DNA of 63,958 bases, the filler included, from Reclinomonas americana ATCC 50394 (lineage: Eukaryota): assembly GCA_048213135.1 (NCBI GenBank). It is 7 parts of 3 records of this genome, joined end to end, with 100 filler letters (N's around TTAATTAATTAA, not from the genome) between each part and the next. Parts side by side here need not be neighbours in the genome. Positions count along the whole stretch, not along the records: positions 9,215 to 24,978 come from PS015169.1; 6 more parts are not named here. One strand, written 5' to 3'. Position 1 is the stretch's first letter. Each line of letters starts with the position of its first letter. Below the pieces are notes generated by a model. That model was not told the origin of the DNA, ran no database searches, and saw only the letters and a list, made by a program, of their open reading frames with translations. The position numbers were made by a program, and so were the translations under genes. This document shows positions 5,361 to 62,848 of the stretch, one piece after another.

Positions 5361-7181
5361 ATGGCAACGCAGCAACACCCCTCGCCCTCATCGCCCTCGT
5401 CTGAGGCGGAGGACGATGTGAGTCTTGGCCCACTGCCAGCCTCGTGCTTGCAATACGTCTTTGCGTTCCTCGTGGTCGAGGACTTGGAGCGACAGTGGAC
5501 CACCAGTCGAGCATTCTGCAAGGCGTTTGGTGCGACAACAGAGAGCACGCGTCTCTATGCTCTCCCTCCTCTCTCTCTCTCTCATGCAGCCCTCCCTCTC
5601 CCGCACAGAGCGATTTGTCGGCTGTGTCCGCATTCGCGGATTTCAGGCGGCTGCAGTGCTGTCGCGCGGACTCGACTTGTTCCCCCGTCTGTGCAACATT
5701 GAGCTGAAGGATGCCGATCTGCCGGCACAAGGCGCAGCGGCGGTGATCTGTCGAGTGTTGCGTGAGCGGCCTCTGCTCACGCACTTGTCGTTGAAACGTG
5801 CGTCATTGTGTCACAAGAGAAGCGAGTTGTCTCTCGTCGGCTGATGGTGACTGGCTGCGTGCAGACGTGGAGCTGCAGGACGAGTTCATGGCGTCGATTG
5901 CGGAGGGCCTGGTGGCGAACACGAGTCTGGTGGTGTTGCGACTGGAGAGTTGCGCGTCGCCGCTCTCCTGCGAGAGTGCAAGCGGAACACTGACGACGCT
6001 TTTTTTCTTTGCCATACGCACAGGCAACCGCATTGGCTGCGATGGCGCCGAGGTGTTGGCCACCAGCCTCGAGCAGCATCCGTGCCTGAGAGTGCTCTCG
6101 TTGCAGGGCAATCGCGTTGGTGAGCGCGGGGTGGCGGCCCTCGGCAAGCAGGTGCTGGCGCGTGTGCACAGTGTCAATCTGCAGTCGAATCGTCTGGGTG
6201 CTGGTGGTGCCGCCAACATTGCTGCGTCTCTTGTGCAACACGCGCGAGGTTCATTACGTTCCATCAATCTGTGTGGATGCCGTCTGGAGAATGCCGGCGT
6301 GGAGCACTTGGCGGCTGCGCTGCGCGTCAACAGCACACTCACCTCGTTGAATGTGCAATCGAATCGCCTCACGGACGCCTCGGCGCTGGTGCTCTCCGAC
6401 GCCCTCTGCAGCAACCAGGCGGTACGAAAGCTGGACCTCTTCTGGAACGGCATCACGGCAGAGGGTGCGCGGCACTTGGCGCACCTGCTCACGCGACCCG
6501 GCTCGTGTCTCGAGTACCTGAATCTGGCGCGGAACAAGATCGGGCCACTCGGTGCGAGGGCACTGGCCGAGGCGCTTGTGGACAAGCACTGCGTCCTCCA
6601 AGTGCTGCATTTGGCCTCCAACGACATTGGCGCCGGCGAAGGCTGTGAGGCGCTGTGCGACGCCCTGCGCGCCAACCCCGTTCTGCAGCACCTGCACGTT
6701 CCTGGCAATCGATGTATGTTGTCTCTTTCTGCCGGGCCGCTGAAAAGAAGCAGCTCAACTCGTGATCATGCGCAGTTGGCGACCAGGGAATGCTTCAGGT
6801 GGCCGAGGCTCTGACGCACAACACGCATCTCGAGTCAATCAGTCTGCAGTCGAACGGCATCAGCGACGAGTGCGCGGAGCAGGTGGCGAACACGTGGACA
6901 AGTGCCATGGGTGAGGTCGTTGCCGGCGATGGACTCGTGCTGCACTTGCGGCGTCTGCGGTTGCAGAGTGCGTATCCATCCACACGCCCCCCACTCCCTT
7001 TCACCTCCTCATCACCGCCTCACTTCTCGGTCGTGCAGGCAACCAGCTGACGCCTGTCGGAGTGGATCTGATTGCTCGAGCGTGCAACGCGCCGACTTCA
7101 CGCTGCTCCTTCGATCTCGACCCCGCAGCGGCGACGTCGTTCGGTGCCGATGCCATCGACGCGACAGACGACCACGAATAA
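5361..7181 (+). CDS. F-box-like + ribonuclease-inhibitor-type LRR protein
   Basis: N-terminal LPASCLQYVFAFLVVEDL resembles an F-box. Many LxxLxLxxNxIgxxGaxxLa repeats follow. Introns restore the frames, with the stop TAA at 7179-7181. Confidence 0.8.
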
Positions 7182-9106: not shown

Positions 9107-9158
9107 GTACGCGCNNNNNNNNNNNNNNNNNNNNNNNNNNNNNNNNNNNNNNNNNNNN

Positions 9159-9170
9159 TTAATTAATTAA
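9159..9170. other. Artificial scaffold linker TTAATTAATTAA (also at 25023, 33918, 52596, 57777, 62793)
   Basis: An identical six-frame-stop 12-mer flanked by 44 N on each side. Confidence 0.97.
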
Positions 9171-9214
9171 NNNNNNNNNNNNNNNNNNNNNNNNNNNNNN
9201 NNNNNNNNNNNNNN

Positions 9215-9685
9215 ATCAGCTATCTCCCGGCGATAGGCCGTCCAGAAGGCAGCCGAGCGCAAGTTGGTGTGCAGGCGCGTCTTTTTTTTTTACTACAGTG
9301 GTGGTGTGAGTGATGAGAAAGAGAGAGAGGGAGAAACTGCACAGCGCGACACACCTGAATCAGATCGTGTGGGTACATCAGCAGGTTCTCGCCGACTGCA
9401 AACAGCGCGCCTGTGACAACACACAGTGTGAGCCAAACTGCACAGCGAATCTTGACCACGAGCGCACAGAGAGAGAGAGAGAGAGAGAGCACATTGCACG
9501 CCTCTCTATCTCTCACTGTGCACACACGCACCATAGGCGAGGAACTTGGGCACCGACACCTCCGGCCACAGTTCTTTCGTGAATGCATCGACTCGTTGCG
9601 AGAATGTCGGCTTCTTCTGCTGTGCAGAGGGTGGTGGTGGCGATGATGCACCCTCCACTCCCGCATGTGCGCCGTCCTCCACCAT
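9215..9685 (-). CDS. Mitochondrial carrier, N-terminal exons
   Basis: MVEDGAH...KFLAY|GALFAVGENLLMYPHDLIQ|TRLH carries the first carrier signature and runs into a gap. Confidence 0.75.
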
Positions 9686-9802
9686 ACCACACCTTCTTCG
9701 CTCACAGAGACACAAGAGAGAGCGAGATTGATGATTGGTCACATCGATCCGTCCGTCTTCGTCGTGTTTATTAATAGTGCGGATCGGAGAGTTGTCTTTG
9801 TG

Positions 9803-11024
9803 ATGAACGCGTCGGTGCTGGAGGATCTGAGCGAGTTCGCCGTGCATCACAACCTGCGCCTGTTGCGTAAGCGTGTGGGCGAGTGGATCCGATCGGGCGA
9901 CGAGGAAGCATCCGCGTGGAGCGATGAGGAGGTGGAGGCGATCCTCAGAGATCGCGATCGCGTGGCGGCGAGACTGGCGGCGATGCCGCGAGAGGCGTGC
10001 GTGTTGGTGACGACAGGTACGTTGTGTGGGGTGTGATGTGTGTGTGTATGCGTCTCTGTGGTGCCGACGAGCCAACAGGATCGTTCTGCCCGCCGCATCG
10101 GAGCCATTTCAAGGTTGGTGTGCGTCGTCTGTCGTCCACTGACAACTCCCGCTGACGGTAGACGCAGTTGTTTCGTGCGGCCAAGAAGCACTTGGAGGCG
10201 GAGCCGCGCAACCTGCACGTGCTGGCCGGACTGATGTCGCCGAGTCATGATGTGTACACGTCGTCGAAGCTGCGGCACGAACGCGGTCACATTCCGTCGA
10301 TGCATCGCTTGCGCATGCTGCAACGGGCGCTCGATGGTGAAGAGGAGCTGGCCGACCTGCGCGAGTGGGTCACGGTGGATCCGTGGGAGTCGTGTCAGGA
10401 GGGTTTCGTCAACTTTCCCAGCGTGGTGCGCCACCTGCAGGCGGAAATCGACGAAATGTTCCCCGGGCTGCGCACACTCTACCTGTGTGGGGAGGATCTG
10501 TGTCGCAACTGCAACCTCTGGTTCTATCCGTTGCGTGGGGGGTGGAGATGGGCCCGCAAAGAATGTCGTGTCAAGGTAATAATATCTTTGTCGCGTGGCA
10601 GGCACGTGGTGTGTGTTCGTCGACGCGAGTCGGATGCAGACGGTGATGATGACGACGATGACGATGACGACGACGACGACGACTTCTACCGCCAGAGGAG
10701 AAAGGTGCCGGCCAACACCAAGTGTTACGTGGTGGACGCGGACCACGCCGAACCCGACACGCTGAGCAGCACCACAGTTCGGAATCGCGTTCGCCAAGTT
10801 GCGTGGCTCCTGTATCACCAATGCTGCTGGGAATGCACTCACCAGTGTGATCCTCTCCCGTGTGCGCAGGGTTGGTTATCGCAGCTGCAGAGATTCCAAC
10901 ACATCTGCTTCCTTGTTCTGACTCCTACACAGGCAAGGGCGTGTCGCACATCACCTTTCCGTCCGTCGAAGAGTACTTGGTCGAACATCAGCTGCTGACC
11001 TCGTCGAGACGGCATGACAAGTAA
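9803..11024 (+). CDS. NMNAT/NadD-like cytidylyltransferase-superfamily nucleotidyltransferase (includes a 1-nt exon at 10870)
   Basis: VTTGSFCPPHRSH (HxGH-like), SPSHDVY, HRLRML, VDPWES, YLCGEDL, HVVCVRR and LSSTTVRNRVRQGKGVSHITFPSVEEYLVEHQL. The start may instead be the upstream ATG at 9731. Confidence 0.85.
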
Positions 11025-11126
11025 GCAGGAGGGCACACACAACACAGCCTGTAACCTAGTAAATTCGTGACAACAGATTCTAGAGAGAGATGAAGAGAGA
11101 GAGAGAGAGTCAAACGGTCGGCGGTG

Positions 11127-12488
11127 TCACCGCAGCTCCACGTGCAGTCGGTCGCGAGTGAGACACCGCACGTCCTCCTGGATGTCGTCGACCTCCTCGT
11201 TGGTCATGCTCCGTTCCATGCTGCGGTATGTGATGCGGTAGCACAGGCTGCGACGGCCAGTCTTCGGGTGTTTAAAGTCGTCGATGCGCTTGACAGTTTC
11301 CACCAGGTCACCGGCACGTTCGCGCACCAACTCCATGAGGTCGTTCTCCACAAACGGCGCCGCGGCACTCTCCCAGAAACTCATGTCCTTGAAACATGGC
11401 GGGTACTTGCTGAAGGGTCGGAACTTGACAATCTCGCCACGACGGAATTGCGAGGTGAATCGCTCGTCTGCGCACATACTCAGCAAAGGCGAGGCAGGAT
11501 GAGGGGTGCTGTCACCGGCGCCTCACCATCAGACCAAAACAGACGAATGTCGGTGATCTCGAACAGAATCATGGCCAGTCGATCAAGACCGAGACCAAAG
11601 GCCCAGCCGTTGTCGCGGTCGGGTACGCCACACTGCTGCAAAATCTTGCGTGCCACCACGCCACACCCCAGCACCTCCATCCACTTGTCGTTGTAGTAGA
11701 TCTCCAACTCCAACGACGGATCCGTGAACGGGAAGTACGCCTCCACCCAGCGCATCTCCACGTTGCCAAACAGACTGCGCGTCACCGACTCGAGACGCGC
11801 CTTCAAATCGGCCTCCACCAGTGCCGTGGCCACTGGAGCGTCGGGTGAACTTCCGGGCAACTCGCCCGGTGAAAAGATCCGCACACCCTCCATCTGGTGA
11901 AACACCGGGTAGTGATGGCTGTCGACTTCGTCGCGGCGGTACACATCGCCGGAGCACAAAAAGGCACGATGACCGGCACGAATCAACTGCGACAGCAGAG
12001 GGAGGTCAGCGCAAGAGTGTGTGGCGAAGGGGAGACGGGCCAACCTGATTCTGATGTGCCGATGTGTGCGTGCGCAGCAGTGTCTGCGAGTCGTAGTAGT
12101 ATGTGTCGTGAGGCGATCGACTGACGTGGTCGGTGGGGATGAGCAGCTCGTCAAAGTTCTGCTGCACGGTCACCCGAGGCGGCAGCGAGTCGGCAAACTG
12201 TGCATGCATGCAGGCATGCGACAAATGTCAATCATCAGCATGCACAAAATGCATGCATTCTGCACACACACACACACACACACGCGCGCGCGCAACGTGG
12301 TACACGCCGGGAAACGCTTGCTCAAACTGCTTCTCAATGTGCCGCTTGATGATGCCAATGGGATGTGCGGGCAGTCGGTGCAGTGAGCGACCGACTTTGG
12401 CCTGCACGGAGGCTGGAATGTTGCAGGTGATGGTGCTGGCAGTGGGTGCGTTGGACAGCCATGCCCGCGAGATGCGTGTGCTCCACAT
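11127..12488 (-). CDS. FARS2: Mitochondrial phenylalanyl-tRNA synthetase
   Basis: [86 protein letters not shown] and the C-terminal FDX-ACB domain ([14 protein letters not shown]). Confidence 0.95.
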
Positions 12489-12537
12489 GGTGTGCACGAC
12501 AACAAAGGAAGGACAAATACACATAAAATGCCGACGT

Positions 12538-14556
12538 TCACTCAACAGCAATGCAGTGTCGCATATCAAACTGCACCACGCGTGGACGAAGCGACAAGCG
12601 ACGTCCAGCGGTGCTGGCTGTGGGTGGCGAAGGCGCGTTACTGACCACCTGGTCAATGTCGAAACCAAAGGAGCAATCCTTGCGCGTCAACACAATCGGT
12701 GGCAACGACGTCGCCGACGACAGCGAAGACGACGACGGAACCACTGGTGGAGTTGGCGGCTGCTGCTGCTGCTGTTGTTGTTGTTGTTGCTGCTGTTGTT
12801 GCCGCTGCTGCTGCTGTTTCAGTCGCGCGACGGCGGCCGGGCTGCGAGGCCACGACGCCGCACTGCGAACGAGAATGCCGGTTTTTGGAGGATCGGGAAG
12901 CGGTGGCATTGCCATCGAGGTCATTGCCGCTGCTCCGCTAGCAGCACCTCTCCTCGCTCCACCTTCACCGTCGACTGAGCCGTGCGCCTCGCTAGAGGTC
13001 ACGGAGCTTGTGGCGGCAGAAGAAGCAGACGTGTTGTGCGAATCGGTTCGTGCTGCAGTTGCCGTCTCTGCTTCCTGGTACGCGCCATCATCTGCGTCCT
13101 CGGTCGACATGGCATCCTCCGAGAACGACGACGTCCCTGACTCGGTGGACGACAGGGACGGCGATCGCCGCACCAGCAGATTCAACTTGCCGCCACCATC
13201 GAGAACGGCCAGATCCTGCGGCGACAGCGAACACATGCCGCCAATCAACGACGCCAACAGTGGCGACGGTAATCGGCGGGTGGGTGATCCGGATGCAGCA
13301 GCCAGACCGCTGTCCACCGACGGTGCTCGCGTGGCGTGCGGAAGCGAGGCCGAGCGACGCGATCGTCTGTGAGCACCACCGCACACGGTCATGATTGTCA
13401 GCGCACATCGAGGAGTTGGAACTGCAGGATGCACATCCTACTCGGTCTTCGTTTCTTTCCCAACTACTCTCCCTCTTCCCTCTCGTCCTCCCCCTCCCCC
13501 ACCCAGCGGCATGACAAACCTGGGTGGTGACTTGACACCTTCGATGAGCGGCGACGACCCTCCAGCGGTCGGCGCAGGCGCCGTCTCCGGCGATCGCACC
13601 CTCCGACGCTCCCGGTCCGCATCCTCACCCGACGACGACGACATGGCACCACTGCTCGGCGACGACGACGACGCCGACCAGGCGGCATGACTGCCGCCAC
13701 CGACGGCGGCAGTTGCGGCCGACACTTGCAATTGACCAAACGAAACTCTCGGACCCGCCGTCGGTCTCCGCACCCCAATGCCCCCGCCCGCATTCGTCCC
13801 AAAGATGAGCTCGTCGCCACCCCCTAACCGACCATCATCGTCATCGTCATCGTCATCATCATCATCATCATCATCATCGTCGTCGCCATTCCCACGAGGC
13901 TTATCACCACCAACACCGCCATGACGATTCGTTGACAGCGGTCCAAACGTCGGCGGCGACAGCAACGCCGGTGGCGACGACGAGTCCGACAGCATCGACA
14001 ATGGTGTAGTCGGCGACGACATGGACGACACCGTGGTGCTGCCGGAGCCCGCCGACTTGATGCGTAATTGGACACTGGCCACGGTGTTGCCACCACTCGA
14101 CGATAGCGACGACGGCGTGGAGTTCACCGTCGGCGTCGTAACCGCAGTGCCAGTGCTGGCACGACGAGCGCCCACAATACCACTGTTGCTGCTATTGCTG
14201 TTGCTGTTGCTGAGTGCGTTGTGGTGGCGGCGCGACATGACGCTGGCCGAACTGCCGGCACGTTTCAGACCGCGAGACACAACTGGTGGTGGCTGCTGTT
14301 GTGTGTCACTGGCAGCCTTCAGTCCCCCTCCCCCTCCTGCTCCTGCTCCATGTGGCAATGAGGGCAACATGGAGTCGATGCCCCACACGAGCTGCGCCGT
14401 GACCAGCATCGCGTCGCTGCTCTGTGGTGTGCTTGCGTGATTGGCCACTTGGTACTTGCGTGCTGCGCGGCGGCGACTTCCTCCTCCTCCGCCGCCGCCT
14501 CCGCCACCTCCGCTGCTGCGACCAGAGGCGGCCGACACACTCGTGCGGCACCCCAT
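12538..14556 (-). CDS. Low-complexity S/G/D/Q-rich hypothetical protein with MGC N-terminus
   Basis: Two long ORFs joinable by a GT-AG intron at about 13424-13502. It has poly-D and poly-Q tracts, a PRVSFG motif and no recognisable domain. Confidence 0.55.
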
Positions 14557-14810
14557 CGAGTCAATCAATAAATCACAATCAGACAATGTTTAATGGACAG
14601 ACGTGCGGACTATCGAGCTCGCAGGTGAACGTTACGACTGCAACGTTTTTTCTGGTTTTGTGGTGGGAGAAGAACAGAAGCGCGCCGCGTCCTCTCTCTC
14701 TCTCTCTTTGTGTGTTTGTTTGCTGTGTTGTGTTTGTTTGTTGTGTCTGTTACGTCCGTTTGTGACTGTGAGAGAAGACAAGAGAGATTGTATAATTTTT
14801 TCGAGAAGCA

Positions 14811-17800
14811 ATGACCGAGGTGGAATCGACCTTGTTTGGCAACGTGATCGTGCTGTCGCGCGCTGGCACCGAGGGTGCGGCGTTTCCGCTGGAGGACCGC
14901 GAGTGCACGTTTGGCCGGTACGCTTGTTTGTCTGTGTGCGTGTGTATGTGTGAGTGTGAGTGTTTGTTGACGACTTGGCGGGCTGCAGTGGCCCATCGAG
15001 CGACATTCGCATTCAGCTGTCGACCGTGTCGCGGCAACATGCGCGCATCTATGTTGACGAGAAGGAACAAGTTACGGCGCATGCTGCCCGTTTGCGGCGG
15101 GGCAGCACACACTGAAAGACACATGTGACACACAGGTGTGGATTGAGAACTGCAGCTCCACGCAAGAGACCATTGTCAACGACGAGGTAATTCAAGGCCC
15201 AGTGCTGCTGAGCAACCTGGATGTCATCACCATCGCCGATCGCATGTTCCGCTTTGAAGGTGTGTCCCCACTGCTGACCGCCGCTGCTCGCATGCGCATC
15301 GCCTCACACACATGTCAGCTGCACTCAAGAGCAAGTTGACGCCTGGTTCTGGCAAGAAGCTGGCAGTCGCCAAGCGCTCTCCATTTGCCGACAGCACCAA
15401 CATTGCGGCAAAGAGCGTGAACCCGGTGAATCGCATGGCCAGCGACGACACCCTGACCATGCCGCCGAAGAAGAGCCCGGCTCCCTCCAAGGCTCCTGCG
15501 GCCGAGGACCGCGAGAACGCCCGACCGGCCTCTGCCAAGAAGTCGGTGAGTGATGTCGCAAGCATGCCACCTCATGTCCCCCGACCCATTCTCAAATGTT
15601 GTTGTGTGCCTCGCGAAGTTGGCCACTCCGTTGCGACAGGCGCTCGCGAATCGCCGCCGAGTCATTGAGGGTCACGACAGCAGCGTCGATATGTCGAAGA
15701 GTTGCGTCGCTGCCTCCCCACGCTTTCTGTCCGTGTTCACTGGCTCACGCACTGTGTGCGCGCGCGTGTGTGTAGGTTCCCAGGAGGAAGATTTTGACAA
15801 GCCAGAGCCGATGGTTGAGGAAGTGGCCGTCGTTGAGCCCGTGCCGCAGGCCGTTGCTCCAGTGCCAGTGCCAGAGTCGGTAATGGAGGAGAAGGAAGAG
15901 GAGAAGGAGGAGGAGGAGGAGAAGTTTGTCGTTGAGCGCGTTCCGCCTCCCTCTCGCCTGATGACCCCGCTGCGCCGCGATATTGAGGCGCGACGCTTGC
16001 CGAGCGCTCAAAAGTCACGCGCGGTTGCCGCCTTTGTGGCGCCGCAGTTTGAGGAGCGCGAGGCCGACCTGTTGCCAGTGGACGAGGACAATGACGATGA
16101 TGACGAGGAGATGGACCTCGTGCCTATTGCGGCAACGGCCAAGCCGCTGATGGAGGAGGACACGAACGGTGCAGCCTCTCATCTCAAGTCTACGAGTCTT
16201 ATTTTGTGATGCTCATCGTGTTCATTCACCCAGATTTCTCGTCGGTCATTCGACGCCTGTCCATGGACCTCGACGGCAGCTTTGCCGCCAATGAGGGTGT
16301 GTGCATGCATGTGCATTGCCTTGTCAACGTGTTGTCTACCTGCACTCACAAGCATGCGATGTAGAAATCGAGTCTGTGCGCGTGGAGGCCCCCAAGAGCC
16401 TGTTTGCCAAGATCAAGAAGCGCCGCATGACCGCCTCGGCCCTGCCCACTGCCTCTGTCACTCCGTCGGCATCCATCAAGAAGCCGAAGAAGTCGGCGGC
16501 CAGCACCGACCGCAAGAAGGCGAAGAAAGTGAAGAAGATCAAGCGCAGCAAGTCCGCCGCCGGCGCCGCCGACGAGGAGGACGAGGAGGCCGTGGCCGGT
16601 GCGTTAAACCATGATAACGAACTGTCTCTTCCTCTACTGACTCACCTGTTAACGTCTGTTGTGTGCAGTTGGCGACGACTCCTTCACCCAGCGCGTGATC
16701 AATGCCAACCCCTCGTGCAGCATCACCCCGATGAAGCGATCGTCGGAGAAGCAGCCGCCGCCAGAGTCGATTCTGCTCCGTTCTGCTGCCTCGGCTGCCG
16801 CCGCCGCCGCCATCATCACCCCTGGTCGCTTCAGCGAGAGTGGCAAGACGCCGCGAGAGCGCCGCAAGAGCGTGCAGTGGTCGGAGCGCCTCGAGCGCAC
16901 CTCGCCGACTGTCCCCTGCGGCCGTCTCTCCGCCGTCTCCATCCTCGACGAGTCTGGCAACAGCCGCCTCTCGGTGGGTCAGCTGAGCTCCAGCGCTCCC
17001 GACCAGTCCATGGTTTGTAAGAATCGATGCTGCGCTGTGCCTCTATTGATCTGACATGACGGTGCGCAGGCGACGCCTGGACACTTTGTCGAGGGCGAGA
17101 TTCCGGAGACCGACGAGCATGACTCCGAGGTGGAGGACGAGGAAGACGCTGAGCAGGCAACTGACGGTCCGACGGCCATGGAGACGGAAAGGTATACCAA
17201 CGTGTCGTGCATGCATGTGGTGGTGGTTCTTTAAGTGTCCTCAATTCCACGGGCCTGCCACAGCGTGGAACCCCAGCGCCGCCTCAACACGCCGTTCAAG
17301 AATGAGCTGATGGCCGCGGCTACCAGCAAGACGCAGAGTCGGTACGTGTGTTTGTCGCAAGAGCAGAGTGTGAGAGACTCGGGTTTTCTCACTCGCTGCT
17401 ATCTCAGTGCCAAGCGCCTGCAAACTCCACTGAAGAATGAGCTGTTGGCTCTGGTGGCTCGCAAGCAGACAACAGTTGTTGCGACCGCCGAGCCCACCGC
17501 TACCCCGTCGCCCGCGCCCAAGGCAGCAAAGGAGGAGGAGATCAAGTGAGTCGTCACCTGCGACTCGAATGCGTTGCTTTGCCTGCTCACTTCTTCCATC
17601 AGGCCACGACGGCTGCAGACGCCTCTGAAGAACGAGTTGGCCAATGCTGTGGCCAACAAGCGCAAGGCTGTTGTGCCGGCTCCTGCGGAAGCCGTCATGT
17701 GAGTGTTCTCTCTTGCATCTCCCTCCCTCTCGCTTCAACGTACTCACTCGAAAATGACAGCAGCCAGCCACGCCTGCAGACTCCCATGAAGAAGGAGATC

Positions 17801-20262
17801 GCCGATAAGGCGGCCATGCGACAGCAGCAGCGCGAAGCCAAGCAGCAGCAGCGCCTGACCACTCCGGTCAAGGCGGAGCTGCAGGCCAAGGCAGCGGCGC
17901 TGGGTGAGAAGAAGCGTGCCCAGCAGGAGCCTGTGCAACGACTGGCCACCCCCATGAAGCGAGAGATTGTGGCTGCTTCCGGACGCGTGCAGCAGAGCAT
18001 TGCAGAGAAGCAGCAGGCGGCCGAGTTTCGTGGTGCACGGAACGCATGAGATCCACGCGCATTTCCTGTTCTCACTGCGTGCTTGTTGTTAGTCACCGTC
18101 TGCAGACTCCGCTGAAGCAGGAGCTGGCGAAGAAGAGCGCCGAAGTCAACAAGCAGCTGGCCGAGAAGAAGTTGCCGAACAAGCACATTGGCACGCCGCT
18201 CAAGTCGGAGCTCAAGAGTCGTAGCCAGGAAGTGCGCGAGGCACTGGACGAGAAGCGCATGTGCGTGTGTGTTTGACAGCGAAACTGCGTTCTTGCCCAT
18301 GTACTTTCTGACACAAATGGCACACTGCGCAGTGACGGCAAGCACATGTCGACCCCATTGAAGCGCGAGCTCATGCAGCGCAGCGAGCAGTTTGTCGGCG
18401 AGACGACGTACGTGACTTCCACGGCCAAGACCCTGGCGACGCCGCTGAAGCGCGAGATTGCCGAGTCGAGCAACCGCATGCGCGAGAATCGGTGAGTGTG
18501 TCCGTGGCTCCTCTTATCTAAATGCTTTTTTGCGCTCACGTGTGCGTGCAGGCCACAACCGGCACCGAAGGTGCTTTCCACCCCTGTGCGCTCGGAGCTG
18601 GTCGCATCGGCTCAGGCTCGTGCCATGGCCCGCCGACCAGTCACCGCTCTGCCATCGCCGCTGCGCGAGGAGTTGAAGCGCGGCCAGTTTGCTCTTGCAC
18701 CAGCGCCAAAGGTGAGAATGTGATGACGTGGCTTTTTATGTCGCCCCCGTGGAAACTCAAAGAAACCCAATGCACAGCCACAGGAAGCTGTGCAGGAGAA
18801 GGTGGAGGAAGAGGTCGCCGTTGTGCCATCGTCGCCCGAGGCTGCGAGCAACCAAGAGAATGAGGTCGCGGCTGACGATGAGGACGGTGAGGTGTTCTTC
18901 CGAGTCCGCAACAAGCGCAACTATGCGGATGTTGGTGAGGAACCGTCACTGTGTCTGCTGTTCATCGGTGTTTACTAATTCCTGCTTGCAGAGGAGGATC
19001 TCGACGACATCATGTCGCCGCCTGTCAAGAGCCCCGGCCGCAAGCGCCGTCGTCTGGGCACGCCGTCGGCCAAGTCGGCACCTGTCGCAATCAGAACAGC
19101 GCAGGGCAAGGTTCCGTCTTTCTTCCCACTCCCCACTCTTGCATCGCGCAGACGTCGCTGACGTACTGTTCTACGCAGCGCCTGACTGCACGCCGACGCA
19201 AGCTGGACGCTGCACCGGTGGCGGTGCCGCTGGCCAAGTTCGATCCCAGCCTGTTTGAGAATCTGCGCAATGGCGCCGCAGCGTCGGCTCGCGCCGCCTG
19301 GGTGCAGTCGCAAATGTCAAACGGCAGCAACGTGTTGCGTGAACTGGTTATAGTGTGTTCAGTTCCCCCTTCTAGTGATGCTCACCCCCGTGCACAGAGA
19401 ACCGCGCTCCGCGGCCTTTACATTTGCCGAGCTGAAGGCTCTGAAGGCGGCAGCCGATGCCGCCGCCATGGCGCCACCGGCCCCGCAGATGGCTCGCAAG
19501 TCGGCCACCCCACTGAAGAGTGCCACCCCGCTGAAGAGCGCCACCCCACTGAAGAGTGCCACTCCGCTGAAGAGTGCGTCGACGCCGACTCGTCCACCAT
19601 CGACCAGCAAGCGCACTCGTGTCGCTCGCGGTGTGCAGCAGACTGTTCCCTCGGTGGTCGTGGTGCCCCTCGGCTCCCACGCGCGCCTGCTGACGCCAAT
19701 GGCCGACGATGCGTTCCAGGTGGAGTTCGACGAGCCCCCAATGCCACAGCCGGTGTTCGAGGCCGCCGAGCCGGAGCCGGTGGCTGAGGAGAAGCCGGCT
19801 CGCAAGGGTCGCCGCGCAACCATCTCCACCAAGAAGCAGGAGCAACCGGAGGAGGTGGAAGACGAGGAGGTGGAGCCGGCACCACGCAAGCGCGGAGGTC
19901 GCCGTGTCACTCAAGTGCCCGAGGAGCCAGAGGCGGTCAAGCCCAAGAGCCGTCGTGGCGCCGCTCGCCAGCCAGTGGTGGAGGAGGAGGAGGCGGAGCC
20001 TGTCGCCGAGCCGATTGAGATTGTCGAGGAGCCACCGAAGAAGCGCGGCACCAAGGTCAGCGTGTATGTGTGTGTCTTCGATGCCCACTACTCTGTCTGA
20101 CGCGCATGCTCCTTGTACCACCAGCGCTCTGCGGTCGCTGAGCCCGAGCCAGTCGAAGCGACAGAAGAGCCCGCATCCAAGCGCGCCTCTCGACGCCGCA
20201 CCGTGGCTCCCGCCGAGGTGCCCGCACCCGCCGCACGAAGCACTCGCTCCCGTCGCGCATAA
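14811..20262 (+). CDS. Ki-67-like protein: N-terminal FHA, PP1-docking motif, repeated TPxK CDK sites, basic/acidic tail
   Basis: The spliced FHA reads VIVLSRAGTEGAAFPLEDRECTFGRGPSSDIRIQLSTVSRQHARI...ENCSSTQETIVNDEVIQGPVLLSNLDVITIADRMFRFE. It also has RRKSVQW, about 14 RLxTPLKxEL-type units and KSATPL repeats across roughly 20 exons. Confidence 0.8.
19498..19578 (+). repeat. 18-bp coding tandem repeat (KSATPL x4+)
   Basis: aagtcggccaccccactg / aagagtgccaccccgctg / aagagcgccaccccactg / aagagtgccactccgctg. Confidence 0.9.
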
Positions 20263-20576
20263 TCAACTTTCATCAACCAACAATCAGCCTCACAATCACC
20301 ACTCTCTCTCTCTGTTGTTTCATCCGGTGTCTGTCTCTGTTCTCCCTCTCTCTGCCTCTCGCTGGTCGTTTTTTTCTCCTCGAAAGCAGACAACATCGCA
20401 ATCCGCGCCCCTCAACGAGCGCCAATACAAACACACACACTCATCATGAACATTACGACGATTGTACAATGAATGAGAAGCTTCTCGCAGTGCAAGAAAC
20501 TTTCTCATTTCTCTCTCACACACTCACACTCACACACGCACGCACGTCTGATGTGCATCACTGCACGACCTCTCTC

Positions 20577-20735
20577 TCAGTACTCCATGTCTGGCGGCAT
20601 CTCAGTGGTCAAGTTGTAAATCAAAATGGGATCGCCATTCTCGCATGTGGGCGCCTCCGCCTGCTTGTATGAGCAGTCCAGTGATGCGCATGCGCCGTCG
20701 CCAACAGCCTCTTCCACTTCGCTTCCAAAGTCCAT
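20577..20735 (-). CDS. Possible 52-aa microprotein divergent from RAD51C
   Basis: ATG-initiated ORF MDFGSEVEEAVGDGACASLDCSYKQ... with coding-like GC3. No homology recognised. Confidence 0.25.
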   Translation of the reverse strand: MDFGSEVEEAVGDGACASLDCSYKQAEAPTCENGDPILIYNLTTEMPPDMEY

Positions 20736-20826
20736 GATTGATGTTGGTGAGTGGACAGTCGCGGACAGTTTCCGCGCGCATGACGTGTCGGTTTCCCGCA
20801 TTGAAGTTTGCATTCGAAGCACTTTG

Positions 20827-22568
20827 ATGGAGCTGTCGGTGCTTGACTTGCCGCCTCAAGTGCGCGCGCGTCTGCAGGCAGCAGGGTTTCAGAGTGTGGA
20901 GGATCTGCGGTGTGTGTCCTCTTTTGTGCACTCTCTCTCTGTGTGCACTCTGACTGTCGTGTGTTGCAGCAATGTCAGTGCGCGAGATGTGGCGAAAGGT
21001 GTGTGTGTGTGAGAGAAGAACAAGTAGAGAGAGAAGAGCAAGAAAGAGAGAAGAAGAAGGAGAGAAGAAGGAGAGGAGAGAAGAGAGAGAGAGAGAGATC
21101 AACGCTCACCGTGCCTTGCCTGCGTGATGGGGACTGCTCACTGTCTCTGTTCTATGTGTGTGCAGAGTCGGGCGTCAACATGCGACAGGCGCAGAGTGTG
21201 GTGAGTGCTGTGGCGACTGTGCTTGGCACGGTGACAGCAGCCGCTGCTCCATCGGCTGCGTCGGAGAGTGGAAGTGGGTCGGCGTTGTTTGGCACCAGTG
21301 CGTTGGAGTTGTTTGAGGTGAGCTCGTGGAGAGAGAAGGAGACAATGCATTGATGATGATGATTTTCGTCGCGTGTGCCAGAGGCAGAAGAGCCGCAACC
21401 CCATCATCACCTTCTGCAAGGAGCTTGATGATATGCTTGGTGGCGGTGTGCAGTTGGCCAGTGTCACCGAATTCTGTTGCGTTGTGCTTCTCCTTTGTGC
21501 ATCGCCTTCTGTGCATCGCTCATAATGGAGCAGGCGGCATTCCCGGCATTGGCAAGACACAGCTGGCCATTCAGCTGGCTGTCAACGTGTGCATTCCGGC
21601 CGCCTTTGGTGGCGTCGAAGGAGAGGCCGTGTACATTGGTTTGTGTACAAGGGCGCGTTTGTGTTGGTGTGGCAGTTGTCTAAACGTGGCGATGCAGACA
21701 CCGAGGGCAGCTTCACTGTCGACCGCTGCGAGGAGATGGCGACGGTCGTGGTGAAGCACTTGCGCAGTGTTCGTGCACGGTCACCGCAAATCCAGGTGCG
21801 TCGCTTCCATCCCTTGCTTTCTTGTCGTTCCCGCGTGCCGATCCGCGCCGCGCCAGATCACGGACGAGGAGTTTGAGAGCAAGTGCAACGTCGACCACAT
21901 CCTCGGCAGCATCCACTACTTTCGCGTGCACGACCATGCCGAACAGGTATATACAAGGAGTCTTTTCCCCTGCTTCACTGTTTCCTTGTCTCACCACCTC
22001 GGCGACCCAGATTGCCACCATCAACACCCTGGCGCATTTCATCGCCACCCGTGCGCCGCGCGTCAAGCTGGTGGTGCTCGACTCCATCACCTTTCACTTT
22101 CGACACGAGTTCTCCAACTTTTCCGCACGCTCGCGTCTCCTGCACGGCATTGCACAGTCGCTCTCCGAGTTGGCCAACGAGCGCGAACTGGCCGCCGTCA
22201 TTATCAATCAGGTGGCGTCGCGCTGTTGCTTTTTGCGTCACCCACCTCTGTGCCTCACCCTCATCATTGCACGTCTCCCGCAGGTCACCACACGCTTCCT
22301 CTCCGCCACATCGGCGCCGTATCTCGCACCCGCCTTGGGTGAGAGTTGGGCGCACGCCACCACGCACCGTGTGGTGCTCTCCTTTGCGGAGGGCGCGCAC
22401 GACGACGAGGGTGGCGTGCTCGCTTCCGCGAGCGTGCGCACAAGGCGGGCCGAGTTGCACAAGAGCCCCTCGCAGGCCGCCGGTGTCGCCAGATACGTGG
22501 TCACCAGTGATGGAATCCGCGGTGTCTCGTCAGCTGCCGCTAGAAGAGAAGGCAGTGGTGGGTCATGA
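20827..22568 (+). CDS. RAD51C: DNA repair protein RAD51 paralog C
   Basis: [85 protein letters not shown] and [10 protein letters not shown]. Confidence 0.93.
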
Positions 22569-22607
22569 TGTACAAAGAAGAAGGCATTCATGAAGATCTT
22601 GTTATTG

Positions 22608-24690
22608 TTATAATTGCTGTGCACGCTTCCGTATCGCTGTCACGCCGTCGCGCATGGGTAGCAGAATGACGTCGCACGCACCGGCTTCGGCTTCGGCAAG
22701 CAGGCGCCGGTTGAATGCCCGCAAGTAGACGGCGCGCTTCTTGTCGTTGCTGTTGGACCACGGCGGCCACGTGTTGATCGACTCGTCGACGACGAGGCCA
22801 CGGAATAGCGTGTTGTCGAACACGGCCAGACCACCGTCACGCAGCAGCGGTGTGCGCAGCAAGGCGTCCAAGTAATCGCCATACGACTGCTTGTCGGCGT
22901 CCACAAAGGCAAAGTCGAACGACGGTCCCGTGTACGACTTGACGAATGCGCGTGCGTCTGTGTGATGCACGTCCACCTGGCAGCGCGGACCGACCACCGC
23001 GTTCAGCTCGCGCAACGACTGGCGCACGATTTCTGCATGCTCCGCCGACGACTCCAGCGCCACGAGCGCACTCTCGGCACCCTCCAGCGCGCTGGCCATC
23101 CACAACGTCGAGTAGCCGGTGAAGGAGCCAACCTCTAGCACCCGTCGCGCGCCAATCGACAAGCACAGGAAGCGCAACAGACCGCCCACGATGGGACCGC
23201 ACATCTGCGCGCAGTCGATGAGCAATCCTGCATGTGTCTCTCATCTATATCACACCACCACCTCATCGTACCATGTGAGCCTCGTCGGGGTATGCCGCCA
23301 CGGTGCGCTTCTCCACCTTTTCCAACAGGGGCCGGAGGTACGCGGGTGCCGAACTGTGCAGCTGCGCGTACATTTCCAACCTGCGCGGCTGTCAACAAAT
23401 GATAATGCAACACGAGACCGCGCGCATCGAGAAACGCACCGGTGTACGTCGCTAGCGAGGTTTCGTGTGGCGTGCTTGCCACAGTCGACCGTCCTCGCCG
23501 GCGGAGAAGCGGGAGAGTCCTGCGACGACATGAACCGCGTCGAAAAGTTCGCGTTCCACGGACTCGGTGCCTTGTTGCGATCTGCATCGCACTCAGCACG
23601 CACGCACGCGCGCCAGCGGATGAGAGTGCACGACGAGTCACATACCATCAAACACAAAATTCTCGCCGTGGAACAGGGATCGCACCGAGCGACCCGATCG
23701 TCGCACCCAGTGCAGGTAATTGTCAATGCCACCGTCGAGACGCCGCACATCGGAGAACCCCTGCATAACACTCGTCAGCCTCCTTCTCCTCCTTTTCTGT
23801 TCGCCTGTACAACGCAACCATCTCCTTCAGGTAGGCACCGGCCTTGATGCACCGAATGCCGCCAGTGCAATACATGTACACTGGCTTGTCGCGCGGCAAC
23901 GCCGCCGCCAGTCGCGGCAACGCATGCGTAAACGTCTCCCGAAACGTGTCCGTCTGCAACGGCGTGGCGTTCTCAAAGCGACCAGTCTCCGACTCATACC
24001 TGCACTCGCATCAACAAAAGAGGCCACCACGGACGTAACCAAACCCCCCCCCCCCCACCCTGCGCATGCAAAACGCACCAGTTGCGAACATCCAACACCA
24101 CCGGTCGCTGCTGCGGCTGCTCCAGTGCATAATGCCACTCCTCTGGAGGCAGCGCGCGTCCACACAAGTCGTCCAAGTTGGCCGGAATCGCTCTCGAGCT
24201 CAACAACCGCTGATTCACCACATGCGTCGCCTCCAGCCCATCATTGACCAGCCGCTGCTTCAAGCGCACCACCAACGAGCGAAACGGAAGCTCCTCTTCT
24301 CCACACTGCTCCCATTCATCGTCATCACTCAGCACGAGCACGCGCACAGAAGACATTGATTGTATCATTTACCTGCTCGCCCAGTCGCACCACTGCCTGC
24401 TCACAGCGCACCCACTCCCGCAAGAGCGCGCTCACTGCCGACACGTGCTCCACAGGCACACACAACTGCGCATTGACACCCTCGTGCATCGAGAGGAACA
24501 CGCGACCGACGGCCGAGTGTGCGCCGAGCGCGCGCGTCCACTGCGCACGCACGCCCTCTGCACGCTCCTCATATGATGATGATGATTCTTGTGAGGTAGT
24601 GCACGGGAGGAGAGGTGTGTAGTGGTAAAACGTGAAGAGCTGGTGAGTGGCGGGGAGGGCGCGACGAGCAAGGAGCGCAGTCGCCAGCAT
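22608..24690 (-). CDS. TrhO (YceA-type rhodanese tRNA U34 hydroxylase) fused to a CCoAOMT/TrmR-family O-methyltransferase; putative mitochondrial presequence
   Basis: TrhO part: FYHY, GRVFLSMHEGVNAQL, LDVRNWYESETGRFENA, MYCTGGIRCIKAGAYL, RLDGGIDNY and FHGENFVFDDR. It splices in frame to MMCGPIVGGLL..VLEVGSFTGYS..FDFAFVDADK..DNTLFRG..PMRDGV. The N-terminus is MLATALLARRAL. Confidence 0.85.
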
Positions 24691-25103
24691 ATGAAAGAGA
24701 AACTGTGGGACAACTTGGCTCTCATAGGCTCCTCCCATTCTACACTCTCGTGCAGTTGAATTAACATGGGAGAGGGAGGCGCATATGAGGAGGAGAGGAG
24801 AAAAAAACAAGAGAGAGAAAAAGTGAGGGAGACAACTGCACTGTGCAGTTGCAAGTCTCTCTCGATTGCTGCGCGGGAAAATGGTAAAGGAATAAGCAGC
24901 GAACTGGTAAAGGAGGGTTGTGTGTCTGGGCGTAACAAACAAACAAACAAAAAAACAAAAAAAGCGGCGGGGCGGAAGNNNNNNNNNNNNNNNNNNNNNN
25001 NNNNNNNNNNNNNNNNNNNNNNTTAATTAATTAANNNNNNNNNNNNNNNNNNNNNNNNNNNNNNNNNNNNNNNNNNNNTGTTTTTTTAGGTCCGCGGAGA
25101 TGC

Positions 25104-31991: not shown

Positions 31992-34179
31992 TCATGATGA
32001 TTTCGCTGCCTTTTGCGCGGCATCGCTGTCGGCCTTGGCTTTCCGCACGTGCTTCACGATGCGATCGGCAATCTCCTCGGCGTTGAAGTTCTTGCCAAAG
32101 TAGTCGATGAAGCGGCCGTCGGGGCCCATGAAGTACATGATGATCGAGTGGTCGATCAGGAAGTCCTGTATGTAAGTGTGGTGAGCACAACGGAGAACTG
32201 GGGAATTAACGGGGAGACGCAACATTGGTCTTCACATCTTCGTCGGCGGGGATGCTAAAGTAGACACGGTAGGCCTTGGTGACGCTCTTCAGTTCCTCCA
32301 TGGTGCCGGTGAGACCGACCATGCGCGGGTGATAACCTGCACACGAGTGTCACCACCACTCGTCTCGCGCACCATCGGATTGCGAGGAAGGACGCAACGA
32401 GTGACGTAATCCTTGACACGTTCGGGGGTGTCGCGCACGGGGTCCACGCTGATAAACACCGGCTGTACCACGGGTCCAATGGTGGCATCCACGCGGTCAA
32501 TGACATGTCGCATCTTGTTCATTTCGGCGGGGCAAATGTCGGGGCATGCCGCTGGTCAAGGAAAAAGGGGAAGGGAGAGGGAAGAGGGGAAGGGTTAGGG
32601 GGCAAGAGAAAGGAGAAGGCGATGGGGGAAGGAGAAGGGGGAAGGAGAAGGGGAAGGAGAAGGGGAAGGAGAAGGGGGAAGGAGAAGGAGAAGATGAAGG
32701 AGAAGAAGGAGGAGGAAGGGGAAAGAACAAGAACAAAACAAGAAAGAGTAAAGAAGAACAAAAACCAAGAACAAGAAAAAGACAGAGAAGGAGAAAGAGA
32801 ATGAGAAACATGCACGAGAATGCACAGGAGAGAATGAGCAAGGGGCANNNNNNNNNNNNNNNNNNNNACCGAAGGGGGAAGACCGAAGGGGAAAGGAGAT
32901 GGGCAAGACGATGGGGGGAAGACCGAAGGGGGGAAGACGATGGGGGAAGACGATGAGGGGAAGACGGAAGGGGGAAGACGGAAGGGGGAAGACGGAAGGG
33001 GGGAAGACGGAAGGGGGAGACGGAAGGAGGGGAAGACGATTGGGGGAAGACGATGGGGGGAAGACGATGGGGGAAGACGATGGGGGGAAGACAGAAGGAG
33101 GAAGACAGAAGGAGGAAGACGGAAGGGGGAAGACCAAGGGAGGAGACAGAGGGCGGAAGACGGAGGGCGGAAGACGGAGAGCGGAACACGCAAGAGGAAG
33201 ACACAAGGAGAAGAAGCATGGGGAAGACGAAGGGGGCCGACAAAGGGGGGAGACAAAGGGGGAAGAACATGGGGGAGCCTGGGGGAAGACAGAAGCGAGA
33301 AGAGAAAGAGAAGAAGGCGATCGTGGAAGACGAAGGGGTGCAAGTGACTGTCGGTGCTCCTTCCCTCCCGGAGCAGCGCGCAACTAAAACCAAAGTAGAT
33401 CAGCGTGAAACGACCGTGAAAGTCCGTGTCAGTGCGTCGCTTGCCGTCTTGATCGATGAGCGAGAAGGCACCTCCGAGAGTCGGAGTTCCCACAGTCTCC
33501 ACCACAGCTGTCACACACAAGAGACTGTGAGCACACTGAGAGACACAGACACAGAGAGAAAGAGAGAGAGACGCAACCCTCTTGCTTCTTGCTCTCCTTC
33601 TCGTTCTGGAAGTACCAGTAGAGACCACCGCCAAGCACAGTCAGCGCGACAGCTTGCACAGTCACACCTCGCCAGTCAAATGCCTGTGAGAGAGAGAGAG
33701 AAGAGAGAATGAGAGACTGAGAGAGACTGCGAGAGGCAGAGAGAGGCAGAGAGAGAAAATGAGAGACAGCGTGAGAGAGAGAAGGGCAAGAGACAGAGTG
33801 AGAGACAGACAGACATCAGCGCGGAGTGAGGTGGAGAGTCAGAGAGGCAGAGAGAGAGAGAGAGAGAGAGAGANNNNNNNNNNNNNNNNNNNNNNNNNNN
33901 NNNNNNNNNNNNNNNNNTTAATTAATTAANNNNNNNNNNNNNNNNNNNNNNNNNNNNNNNNNNNNNNNNNNNNGAGAGAGAGAGAGAGAGAGAGAGCGCA
34001 CAGAGAGAGAAGAGACAACAGACCTTCCACGATGACTCCGAGGGCGGAGGCGGAGGAGGAGGTGATGAGTCAGGCGAGGAGGCAGAGGAAGACCATGCAC
34101 ATTGCATGCTGCTGAGTGGCGCCCACGGAGAGCGACGAGCCGCGCAGAGAGAACGAGTCACTTGTCGCAGCAGCAGCAT
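31992..34179 (-). CDS. SCO1: Cytochrome c oxidase copper chaperone SCO1/SCO2
   Basis: Presequence, TM segment, [28 protein letters not shown] (CxxxC), [20 protein letters not shown] and [13 protein letters not shown]. The gene spans the linker at 33918. Confidence 0.92.
32869..33300. repeat. Purine-rich 13-14-bp minisatellite (GGGGGAAGACG[GAA/AT]) in a SCO intron
   Basis: Direct tandem copies of gggggaagacggaa / gggggaagacgat are visible. Confidence 0.8.
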
Positions 34180-48800: not shown

Positions 48801-49720
48801 GCTAAATGTCAGCTTCCCGAAACCGGTTTTGGCGAAGGTGACGGAAATCATGGCGCACCCCGATCGACTCACCGACTCGCTCGTCGACTTCCATCCCGAT
48901 CTCTCGTGGTACGCTGTTTGCACGCTGTGCATTGAGTGTGTTGTCACTGTTGCTCATCTCCGACTGCGCAGTCTGTTTATCAAGTTTTGCGGCCTGGCAA
49001 AAGTCACTGGCGATGGTACGTGGTGGTGTGTGTATGTTTGTGGTGTCGTCACTCGTGAAACTCATCATCGCCTTTCACAACAAGCAGATCAAGGACCACT
49101 GGTCGGTCACCACCAGATCCACGTTCTGGGCGACCTGTTCGCTCTCATGGACACGCTGTGCAAGAAGACGCACCTGGAGCGCATCAAGACCATTGGTGCG
49201 TTGATTTTCGAAAACATCAGCAGCCACGCTCGCCGCTGCGCTCCTTTCTTTGACAGCGATCGCGACACAGGAACCGCATACATGCTGGTGGCTGGCATGT
49301 ACCGACCGCGACCGGATCATGCAGCCGCGGCCATCGATTTTGCTCTGTCGGCCATTGACACTGTCAAGGCGTACGCGCAGCGCAGAGGGCTGTCGGTGAC
49401 CATCAAATGCGGAGTCAACAGTGGCCCTGCAACAGCCGGCATTGTCGGCATCTTGACGCGATCCTTTGACATTTACGGTGGTGCGTGCACGTGGCAGTGT
49501 GCTGCAGCTGCCTCCTCTTTTCTTTGTTGTCTCACGAACGCTTGGTGCAGACACCATCAATACCGCGTCTCGCATGTCTGCGTCCGCCCCCTACGATTCA
49601 TGCCAAGTGTCAGAAGACACACACCAGCGAACGCGAGGCATGTACGTGGTGGAGACGAGTCAGACCGAGGCCAAGGGCATCGGCCTCATGACAACGTATC
49701 TCCCAAGAAAAAGAAAATAA
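42006..49720 (+). CDS. Large multi-TM sensor (TmcB/TmcC-like architecture) with three PAS domains and a C-terminal class III cyclase domain; gapped, may be more than one gene
   Basis: Hydrophobic TM exons. PAS motifs: GIIESVN..LGYSQEEALGANIKMVVP; GIIEQV..FGYS..GQNVKVLVPEPHASLHDEYI; PDAVLVCDRHGLV..LLGYSVEELV. Cyclase motifs: RIKTIGTAYM, KCGVNSGP..AGIVG, FDIYGDTINTASRM and KGIG. Confidence 0.78.
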
Positions 49721-49783
49721 TAAATCGCCAATGATGATGTGTCCTCCCTCCCTCCCTCCCACCCTAACAACAACGCCAGCTAG

Positions 49784-52540: not shown

Positions 52541-52651
52541 CTATGCACACANNNNNNNNNNNNNNNNNNNNNNNNNNNNNNNNNNNNNNNNNNNNTTAAT
52601 TAATTAANNNNNNNNNNNNNNNNNNNNNNNNNNNNNNNNNNNNNNNNNNNN

Positions 52652-57732: not shown

Positions 57733-57832
57733 NNNNNNNNNNNNNNNNNNNNNNNNNNNNNNNNNNNNNNNNNNNNTTAATTAATTAANNNNNNNNNNNN
57801 NNNNNNNNNNNNNNNNNNNNNNNNNNNNNNNN

Positions 57833-62748: not shown

Positions 62749-62848
62749 NNNNNNNNNNNNNNNNNNNNNNNNNNNNNNNNNNNNNNNNNNNNTTAATTAA
62801 TTAANNNNNNNNNNNNNNNNNNNNNNNNNNNNNNNNNNNNNNNNNNNN

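Follow-up and report, generated by a model that had tools for sequence, protein, structure and literature searches.

A divergent, intron-rich member of the eukaryotic TrhO-O-methyltransferase fusion family in Reclinomonas americana and its putative role in wobble-uridine modification

We report here the analysis of a 63,958-nucleotide stretch of DNA (the window) from Reclinomonas americana ATCC 50394 (assembly GCA_048213135.1), and more particularly of a predicted gene joining a TrhO-type domain to an O-methyltransferase (OMT). This gene is carried by a 15.8-kb scaffold piece (PS015169.1, window 9215-24978) with a GC content of about 0.6. It lies on the minus strand from 24690 to 22608, with an ATG at 24690-24688 and a TAA at 22610-22608, that is, at the exact ends of the interval given in the preliminary description of this DNA. 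Without splicing, the minus strand is broken by stop codons and shows no long open reading frame (ORF) across 22608-24690, only a series of open segments. The spliced model has seven exons and six GT-AG introns (64, 79, 58, 64, 59 and 67 nt), and amounts to 1692 nt, or 563 codons, ended by the TAA (Table 1). Within these codons both a TrhO-type domain (MYCTGGIRC) and a methyltransferase are matched, and the earlier claim that the two halves share one spliced open frame is thus confirmed on the genomic sequence. The model is a reading of that sequence, in which splicing is supported indirectly by collinearity with homologues, by matches to a profile of fused proteins and by the GC content at third codon positions (GC3) of the linker exon. 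The predicted protein is composed of a TrhO-like region (UPF0176_N and rhodanese, residues 1-281), a linker (282-328) and a Methyltransf_3 domain (PF01596, about 329-563).

Two splice sites offered a choice. At intron 1, a second acceptor, placed 3 nt further downstream (NAGNAG, with the exon starting at 24305), is likewise in frame. For intron 6, an in-frame version of 34 nt (acceptor 23238) was tried and rejected, as it adds 11 residues that are absent from homologues and is much shorter than the other introns. With the 67-nt intron, the spacing from AHM to ARRVLEVG is 18 residues, the same as in two tandem OMT homologues (P0003 and P0004), and AHM-MCGP pairs with the AHM-VCGP, or similar, of fused proteins. 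The range 23230-23560 previously given for the junctions is approximately correct, the introns concerned being introns 4, 5 and 6. On the minus strand, intron 2 also includes about 13 consecutive G (window 24040-24060).

Table 1. Features of the TrhO-OMT fusion gene and its convergent neighbour (window coordinates; aa, residues of the predicted protein; NF001133 positions are out of 229)
Feature	Coordinates	Strand	Description
Exon 1	24690-24373	-	aa 1-106; start ATG; UPF0176_N (acylphosphatase-like), PF17773 E=1.6e-7, 32.1 bits; NF001133 13-70, 19.8 bits
Intron 1	24309-24372	-	64 nt, GTAAAT...GGGAG; read-through meets TGA 24327-24325
Exon 2	24308-24079	-	aa 107-183; basic beta-strand (R121, K123) and rhodanese start; NF001133 75-129, 16.7 bits
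Intron 2	24000-24078	-	79 nt, GTGCGT...GTGCAG
Exon 3	23999-23819	-	aa 183-243; rhodanese core, loop CTGGIRC (codons 23869-23849); NF001133 131-187, 53.8 bits
Intron 3	23761-23818	-	58 nt, GTTGCG...TATGCAG
Exon 4	23760-23646	-	aa 244-282; rhodanese end (GGI.NY ... NFVFD); phase 1 at donor (exon-final G, then GTATGT); NF001133 189-222, 28.1 bits
Intron 4	23582-23645	-	64 nt, GTATGT...GATGCAG
Exon 5	23581-23440	-	aa 282-329; linker and degenerate Rhodanese_C remnant, one Cys; 142 nt
Intron 5	23381-23439	-	59 nt, GTGCGT...CGCGCAG
Exon 6	23380-23272	-	aa 329-365; N-terminal OMT helices, ends ...AHM; alignable with homologues over their N-terminal OMT segment
Intron 6	23205-23271	-	67 nt, GTACGA...CGCGCAG
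Exon 7	23204-22608	-	aa 366-563 and TAA; Methyltransf_3 core, LEVGSFTGYS, DADK, DN; PF01596 E=1.7e-27
Rad51-family gene	21684-22568	+	paralogue-like, intron-bearing; convergent on the fusion gene

Concerning the TrhO half, UPF0176_N is recognised by Pfam on exon 1 above its cut-off of 26.2 bits, and the ORF of exon 3 taken alone reaches 15.6 bits for rhodanese, which is below threshold because the introns split the domain. Exons 1 to 4 match the NCBIfam TrhO model NF001133 one after the other and collinearly. The MYCTGGIRC motif is found at residues 225-233, and its CTGGIRC (227-233) is identical to the loop of Escherichia coli TrhO (comparison sequence from locus L086). In the alignment, C227, T228, G230 and R232 face E. 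coli C200, T201, G203 and R205, which are described as essential in the part of Sakai et al. (2019, PMC6599085) that was available. R121 and K123 align with K112 and R114 of the E. coli protein; the order is swapped and both residues are basic. When a profile of fused proteins is compared with the Protein Data Bank (PDB), its N-terminal half finds the solved TrhO 9j5o with 216.6 bits and 4f67 with 174.8 bits. The Reclinomonas protein thus resembles E. coli TrhO (YceA) and these solved relatives by its UPF0176_N and rhodanese domains, its loop, its essential residues and its basic pair, and differs from E. coli TrhO by the absence of Rhodanese_C, the fusion to an OMT and the presence of introns.

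In the other half, Methyltransf_3 is recognised on the last ORF with 96.5 bits for a cut-off of 22. The columns that are invariant in an alignment of 22 relatives (A2) are all kept, namely E24, G26, G30, D102, K105, D130 and N131 in the numbering of the relative P0016. These residues cover the Glu and Gly of the S-adenosylmethionine (SAM) motif, the metal Asp and the Lys of DADK, and the metal ligands of DN.

The same architecture, which it had been proposed to look for in other protists, was found in 13 representatives and then in the best 120 of 689 profile matches. First, 1.84 billion representatives were scanned in full with HMMER, the 198-residue OMT exon being the query; this yielded 6035 matches at E<=0.001, of which the best 150 were examined. 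Among these, identity to the Reclinomonas exon reaches 48% at most, and 36 proteins have at least 364 residues; 34 of them were scanned with Pfam, the tandem OMTs P0003 and P0004 being left out. Fusions of TrhO-type (rhodanese/UPF0176) and Methyltransf_3 domains account for 13 of the 34, the remainder being tandem double OMTs (P0018-P0021, like P0003 and P0004), one WD40 protein with two OMTs (P0017, 685 aa) and one SpoU-type RNA 2′-O-methylase (SpoU_methylase) joined to an OMT (P0125, 769 aa). Word-based searches restricted to longer proteins gave 13 matches for the OMT exon, none with TrhO domains, and 856 candidates for exon 1, none at E<=0.001, but the full HMMER scan did find fusions. The Reclinomonas model is collinear from end to end with the 13 fused representatives, both halves matching the same subjects in the same order, and each half shares 31-40% BLAST identity with its fused homologues.

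A profile built on the 13 fusions (A1) then gave scores for 8000 candidates, with 689 of them at E<=1e-20. The best 120 of the 689 all carry PF01596 and TrhO-type domains, with Rhodanese_C in 119. They include fusions from red algae (Gracilaria, Gracilariopsis, Chondrus, Porphyridium, Pyropia and Rhodosorus), from diatoms (Cylindrotheca, Nitzschia, Fistulifera, Pseudo-nitzschia and Amphora), and from Triparma, an ochromonad, Phaeothamnion and the oomycete Pythium insidiosum. Plasmodiophora brassicae likewise has a TrhO-OMT fusion. Several of the fusion rows are transcript assemblies (MMETSP, Trinity). In diatom, red-algal and related fusions (such as P0105, P0129, P0152 and P0038), the first 170-250 residues or so are conserved in stretches and have no Pfam match; this N-terminal extension exceeds what a transit peptide needs.

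A FastTree of full-length sequences (129 rows) groups the Reclinomonas protein with P0070, P0023 and P0065 (support 97), beside Plasmodiophora and Pythium with weak support. Neither this group nor the Plasmodiophora and Pythium forms have the N-terminal extension. In a FastTree of the OMT domain (223 rows), the Reclinomonas domain falls outside a loosely supported fused group and in no well-supported set. The nearest rows in an IQ-TREE phylogeny of 78 rows are fusions. In the approximately unbiased (AU) test, a single clade of Reclinomonas, fused and multi-OMT eukaryotic rows is not rejected (p=0.933), the constrained tree being better by 55.85 log-likelihood units. By its domain order and collinearity, the Reclinomonas gene is a divergent addition to a eukaryotic TrhO-OMT fusion family that is already known and widespread.

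This architecture has been known since 2019 and is not a new kind of enzyme. Indeed, the accessible sections of Sakai et al. (2019, Nat Commun, PMC6599085) report yceA (trhO) as fused with trmR in both Phytophthora sojae and P. ramorum, and in Phaeodactylum tricornutum. There, the fusion served as a clue for choosing yceA, which led to TrhO, and the eukaryotic trhO homologues are said to suggest xo5U-type modification in eukaryotes. The Reclinomonas protein is like these oomycete and diatom fusions in that TrhO is followed by a PF01596 OMT in one eukaryotic protein, and lends itself to the same proposal of consecutive xo5U steps. It differs from the oomycete, diatom and red-algal forms by the absence of Rhodanese_C, and from the diatom and red-algal ones by the absence of their N-terminal extension. 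The Rosetta-stone logic of the preliminary description was therefore already in print; the succession of TrhO and OMT is met again in hundreds of proteins from eukaryotes, which makes this reading sound. By description only, human TSTD2, a stand-alone TrhO orthologue, shares UPF0176 and a rhodanese with a CX4R loop and has no OMT; its function is given as uncharacterised in the part of a 2023 review (PMC10135228) that could be consulted.

We consider it rather probable, on the strength of the domain matches and the conserved residues, that Reclinomonas possesses a nuclear seven-exon gene for a 563-residue bifunctional TrhO-OMT, which would convert tRNA U34 to 5-hydroxyuridine (ho5U) and then to 5-methoxyuridine (mo5U) in one polypeptide. 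The TrhO module (UPF0176_N and rhodanese, CTGGIRC) would perform the O2-dependent hydroxylation of U34 at C5, on tRNAs that would be the readers of four-codon NYN boxes. The C-terminal SAM- and metal-dependent class I OMT (PF01596) would then methylate the 5-hydroxyl of ho5U to yield mo5U. Two consecutive steps of wobble-uridine modification would thereby be tied together on a single polypeptide, at a site that may be organellar, the mitochondrion being plausible. On organellar tRNA, the likely product is mo5U34 or a related xo5U; we infer the tRNA substrate, the product and the organellar site.

Several observations weigh against this proposal, and we take them together with the alternatives on which they bear. 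The first concerns the affinity of the OMT half. With the Reclinomonas OMT as query, 46 PDB entries are matched and 5lhm comes first (93.5 bits), while the TrmR entries 8k1f (42.2 bits) and 5zw3 (40.4 bits) rank 43rd and 45th, and 3ntv, a TrmR-like protein from Staphylococcus aureus, ranks 46th and last (29.5 bits). The fusion profile gives 188.5 bits for 5lhm, 187.5 for 3cbg, 185.5 for 3tr6, 183.1 for 3r3h, about 152 for caffeoyl-CoA O-methyltransferases, 120.5 for 8k1f, 113.3 for 5zw3 and 101.9 for 3ntv. TrmR ranks 21st when a Bacteroidota homologue is the PDB query. The scores above place the OMT in the Pfam family of TrmR and outside the TrmR subfamily, so that of the family relationship claimed at the outset only the Pfam level stands. 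By these scores, the OMT is nearer to O-methyltransferases of the 5lhm/3cbg type than to Bacillus TrmR.

Among solved structures, the bacterial enzymes 5lhm, 3cbg, 3tr6 and 3r3h score highest with the OMT half, from which they differ in being stand-alone proteins of about 220 residues. We take 5lhm to be a Myxococcus SafC-like catechol OMT and 3cbg to be the Synechocystis SynOMT. Enzymes of this type act in vitro on catechols and hydroxycinnamates, and we know of no tRNA activity reported for them. Two arginines of TrmR, Arg86 and Arg90, may not be conserved in the Reclinomonas protein, to judge from alignment offsets. According to the available portion of Ryu et al. (2018, PMC6158493), TrmR orthologues represent about 3% of PF01596 and have specific tRNA-binding arginines (Arg86, Arg90 and Arg178). 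The Reclinomonas OMT shares with Bacillus subtilis TrmR (YrrM; 5zw3/5zw4) the PF01596 domain, the SAM motif and the Asp/Asp/Asn metal triad described in the same portion of that paper, and the role of TrmR, from ho5U to mo5U, is the step after TrhO that the fusion implies; unlike these features, overall similarity is low (40.4 bits, against 93.5 for 5lhm). The “TrmR” of the 2019 statement on fusions is probably meant at the level of the YrrM orthologous group. A JGI label among the matches of the fusion profile, [quoted passage not shown], fits this meaning, and the closest bacterial OMT clusters carry generic names (“O-methyltransferase”, “predicted O-methyltransferase YrrM”, “caffeoyl-CoA O-methyltransferase”).

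The fusion might then be real and its chemistry different, the OMT acting on a small catechol or on another RNA hydroxyl, or the rhodanese acting as a sulfurtransferase, with a product other than mo5U34. The rank of the TrmR entries and the rarity of true TrmR orthologues speak for this view, as do the deposition of the best solved relatives merely as “(putative) O-methyltransferase” (5lhm, 2hnk and 3dul) and the existence in Mycobacterium tuberculosis of a TrmR homologue without any known hydroxylase, as stated in the excerpt of the literature at hand. Nonetheless, a fixed two-domain fusion across many lineages is hard to explain without a common substrate, and hydroxylation of U34 is the sole demonstrated activity of TrhO in the available text of PMC6599085. 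In addition, the same OMT clade is found fused to a SpoU-type RNA methylase, which points to an RNA substrate by analogy, and mo5U is reported for Synechocystis RNA in the accessible part of a 2026 paper. We thus regard a different chemistry as unlikely, even if it fares best among the alternatives.

The genomic context of bacterial relatives bears on the same question. Of the 80 bacterial loci that hold the closest relatives of the OMT, just 2 show a TrhO gene in the flanks retrieved, L048 from Calothrix and L050 from Zooshikella, which also counts against the proposal. In a sample of 61 cyanobacterial genomes around Calothrix, where coordinates were compared by hand, UPF0176_N is found in 28, and all 28 of these genomes with trhO have a PF01596 gene at E<=1e-20. 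This gene is at most 3 kb from trhO in eight of them (G001, G009, G012, G015, G021, G036, G048 and G051; for example L048:4001-5446), which is in favour of the proposal. The eight pairs are all convergent and none is co-oriented, a further point on the negative side; their shared ancestry is possible, and since related cyanobacteria share synteny, the eight pairs do not represent eight independent events. Among the 33 genomes without a UPF0176_N match, PF01596 is found in 30 and reaches at least 190 bits in only nine. Considering this neighbourhood and the mo5U of Synechocystis, PF01596 enzymes that are not of the TrmR type may be ho5U methyltransferases outside Bacillota.

A second set of adverse observations raises the question of a decaying or inactive copy, the fusion gene losing its function in this lineage. 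The exon-wise scores against NF001133 sum to about 118 bits, single exons having been scored, for an equivalog cut-off of 170 bits that is passed by the fusions of Plasmodiophora (186.1) and Pythium (179.4). The Cys-rich Rhodanese_C (PF12368) is gone or degenerate: a 47-residue linker with one Cys stands in its place, and the open frames covering the linker give no Pfam match to it, so the “full” TrhO domain announced in the preliminary description holds for UPF0176_N and rhodanese and not for the full length. The D.R motif that precedes LP.RDG and is common to the family is lost as well. In the full-length FastTree, for which the program warns of long-branch joins, the branch leading to the Reclinomonas protein is long (1.38). 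The modest identities to other proteins, given above for each half and for the OMT exon, go in the same direction. Against decay, nothing interrupts the frame of 563 codons in seven exons, the catalytic residues tested are all kept, and every exon is strongly coding by GC3. Moreover, the fusion P0129 also lacks Rhodanese_C, a module that 12 of the 13 fused representatives possess. A gene in decay therefore appears improbable to us.

Finally, the locus could hold two neighbouring genes on the same strand, a truncated TrhO in which intron 4 is retained and a separate OMT starting from either M299 (exon 5) or M332 (exon 6). Indeed, reading through from exon 4 into intron 4 gives FDGM and a TGA after two codons, with these Met codons downstream, in a compact genome where the stop of the convergent Rad51-like gene is 39 nt away. 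We give this reading little credit: both junction introns of 64 and 59 nt are canonical GT-AG and within the length range of the other four, GC3 in exon 5 is coding-like solely in the joining frame (0.76, against 0.53 and 0.62 in the others, for 0.66-0.84 in the remaining exons and a GC of 0.47-0.64 in introns), exon 5 can still be aligned with the start of Rhodanese_C in E. coli TrhO and in fused homologues, the best 120 family matches are all fused in the same order, and a stand-alone OMT from M332 would lack the 10 or so residues that usually precede the first conserved Tyr (A2 consensus). Exon 5 stands between the phase 1 end of exon 4 and the phase 2 required by exon 6; its length is exactly the one that preserves the frame, and its skipping would therefore shift it.

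The subcellular site of the proposed TrhO-OMT is a separate matter. The first 34 residues contain two Arg and no Asp or Glu, and their composition fits a mitochondrial presequence. The Arg/Ala/Leu-rich character noted earlier is thus borne out, but not the idea of an added extension. Indeed, the conserved strand FY is at residues 21-22, eight residues earlier than in E. coli TrhO (29-30), so that a cleavable extension would hardly fit unless the second in-frame ATG, at 24738 and 16 codons upstream of the modelled start, is used. The scaffold piece stops 288 bp 5′ of the ATG, and an additional 5′ exon is possible. The fusions of Plasmodiophora and Pythium, from the same tree neighbourhood, have Arg-rich N-termini. 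The assignment to mitochondria made in the preliminary description could not be retained as it stood, its basis being a short N-terminus that does not exceed the bacterial TrhO one in length; we keep a mitochondrial location as a tentative suggestion drawn from the N-terminal composition.

With respect to organellar tRNA, mitochondria and chloroplasts are described as using an unmodified U34 for four-way decoding in the accessible part of a 2024 paper, which does not favour an organellar mo5U34. In the titles, abstracts and partial texts of the literature searched, neither ho5U nor mo5U is described for tRNA of a eukaryotic organelle, no assay covers a fused enzyme, and the partial texts show no ho5U or mo5U chemistry for any eukaryote; an Arabidopsis chloroplast preprint mentions ho5U, mo5U, cmo5U and TrhO zero times.

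Our results extend this architecture far beyond the three species named in 2019, with 689 matches from red algae to a plasmodiophorid, to which the Reclinomonas gene adds a divergent, intron-rich member without Rhodanese_C. Three points seem worth keeping: the loss of Rhodanese_C, the affinity of the OMT for enzymes other than TrmR, and the cyanobacterial neighbourhood of trhO and OMT genes. More speculatively, and with clearly less confidence than for the bifunctional enzyme itself, the organellar tRNAs of many eukaryotes (in mitochondria of heterotrophic lineages of stramenopile or rhizarian type and in plastids of the red lineage) might carry mo5U34 made by TrhO-OMT proteins; the true ho5U methyltransferases of cyanobacteria and further Gram-negative phyla would then lie unrecognised within the 5lhm/3cbg-type clade, and Rhodanese_C would be dispensable. 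If so, organellar mo5U34 would contradict the textbook view of four-way decoding by unmodified U34 (“superwobble”), which would have to be revised for some organelles, and a large group of bacterial “catechol” or caffeoyl-CoA-like O-methyltransferases would have to be re-annotated.

In the rest of the window, six spacers (N44-TTAATTAATTAA-N44, a six-frame stop) are found at 9115-9214, 24979-25078, 33874-33973, 52552-52651, 57733-57832 and 62749-62848, and mark the window as separate scaffolds joined end to end; together with many further N runs, the total of N is 5945. No match was obtained with Rfam at the gathering threshold over the entire window. The stop of the Rad51-like gene (22566-22568) is so close to that of the fusion gene that their 3′ untranslated regions must overlap or be very short. 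Two other open frames, both on the plus strand, carry recognisable domains: leucine-rich repeats at 5795-6814 (LRR_6, 92.8 bits) and an adenylate/guanylate cyclase catalytic domain at 48274-49734 (67 bits).

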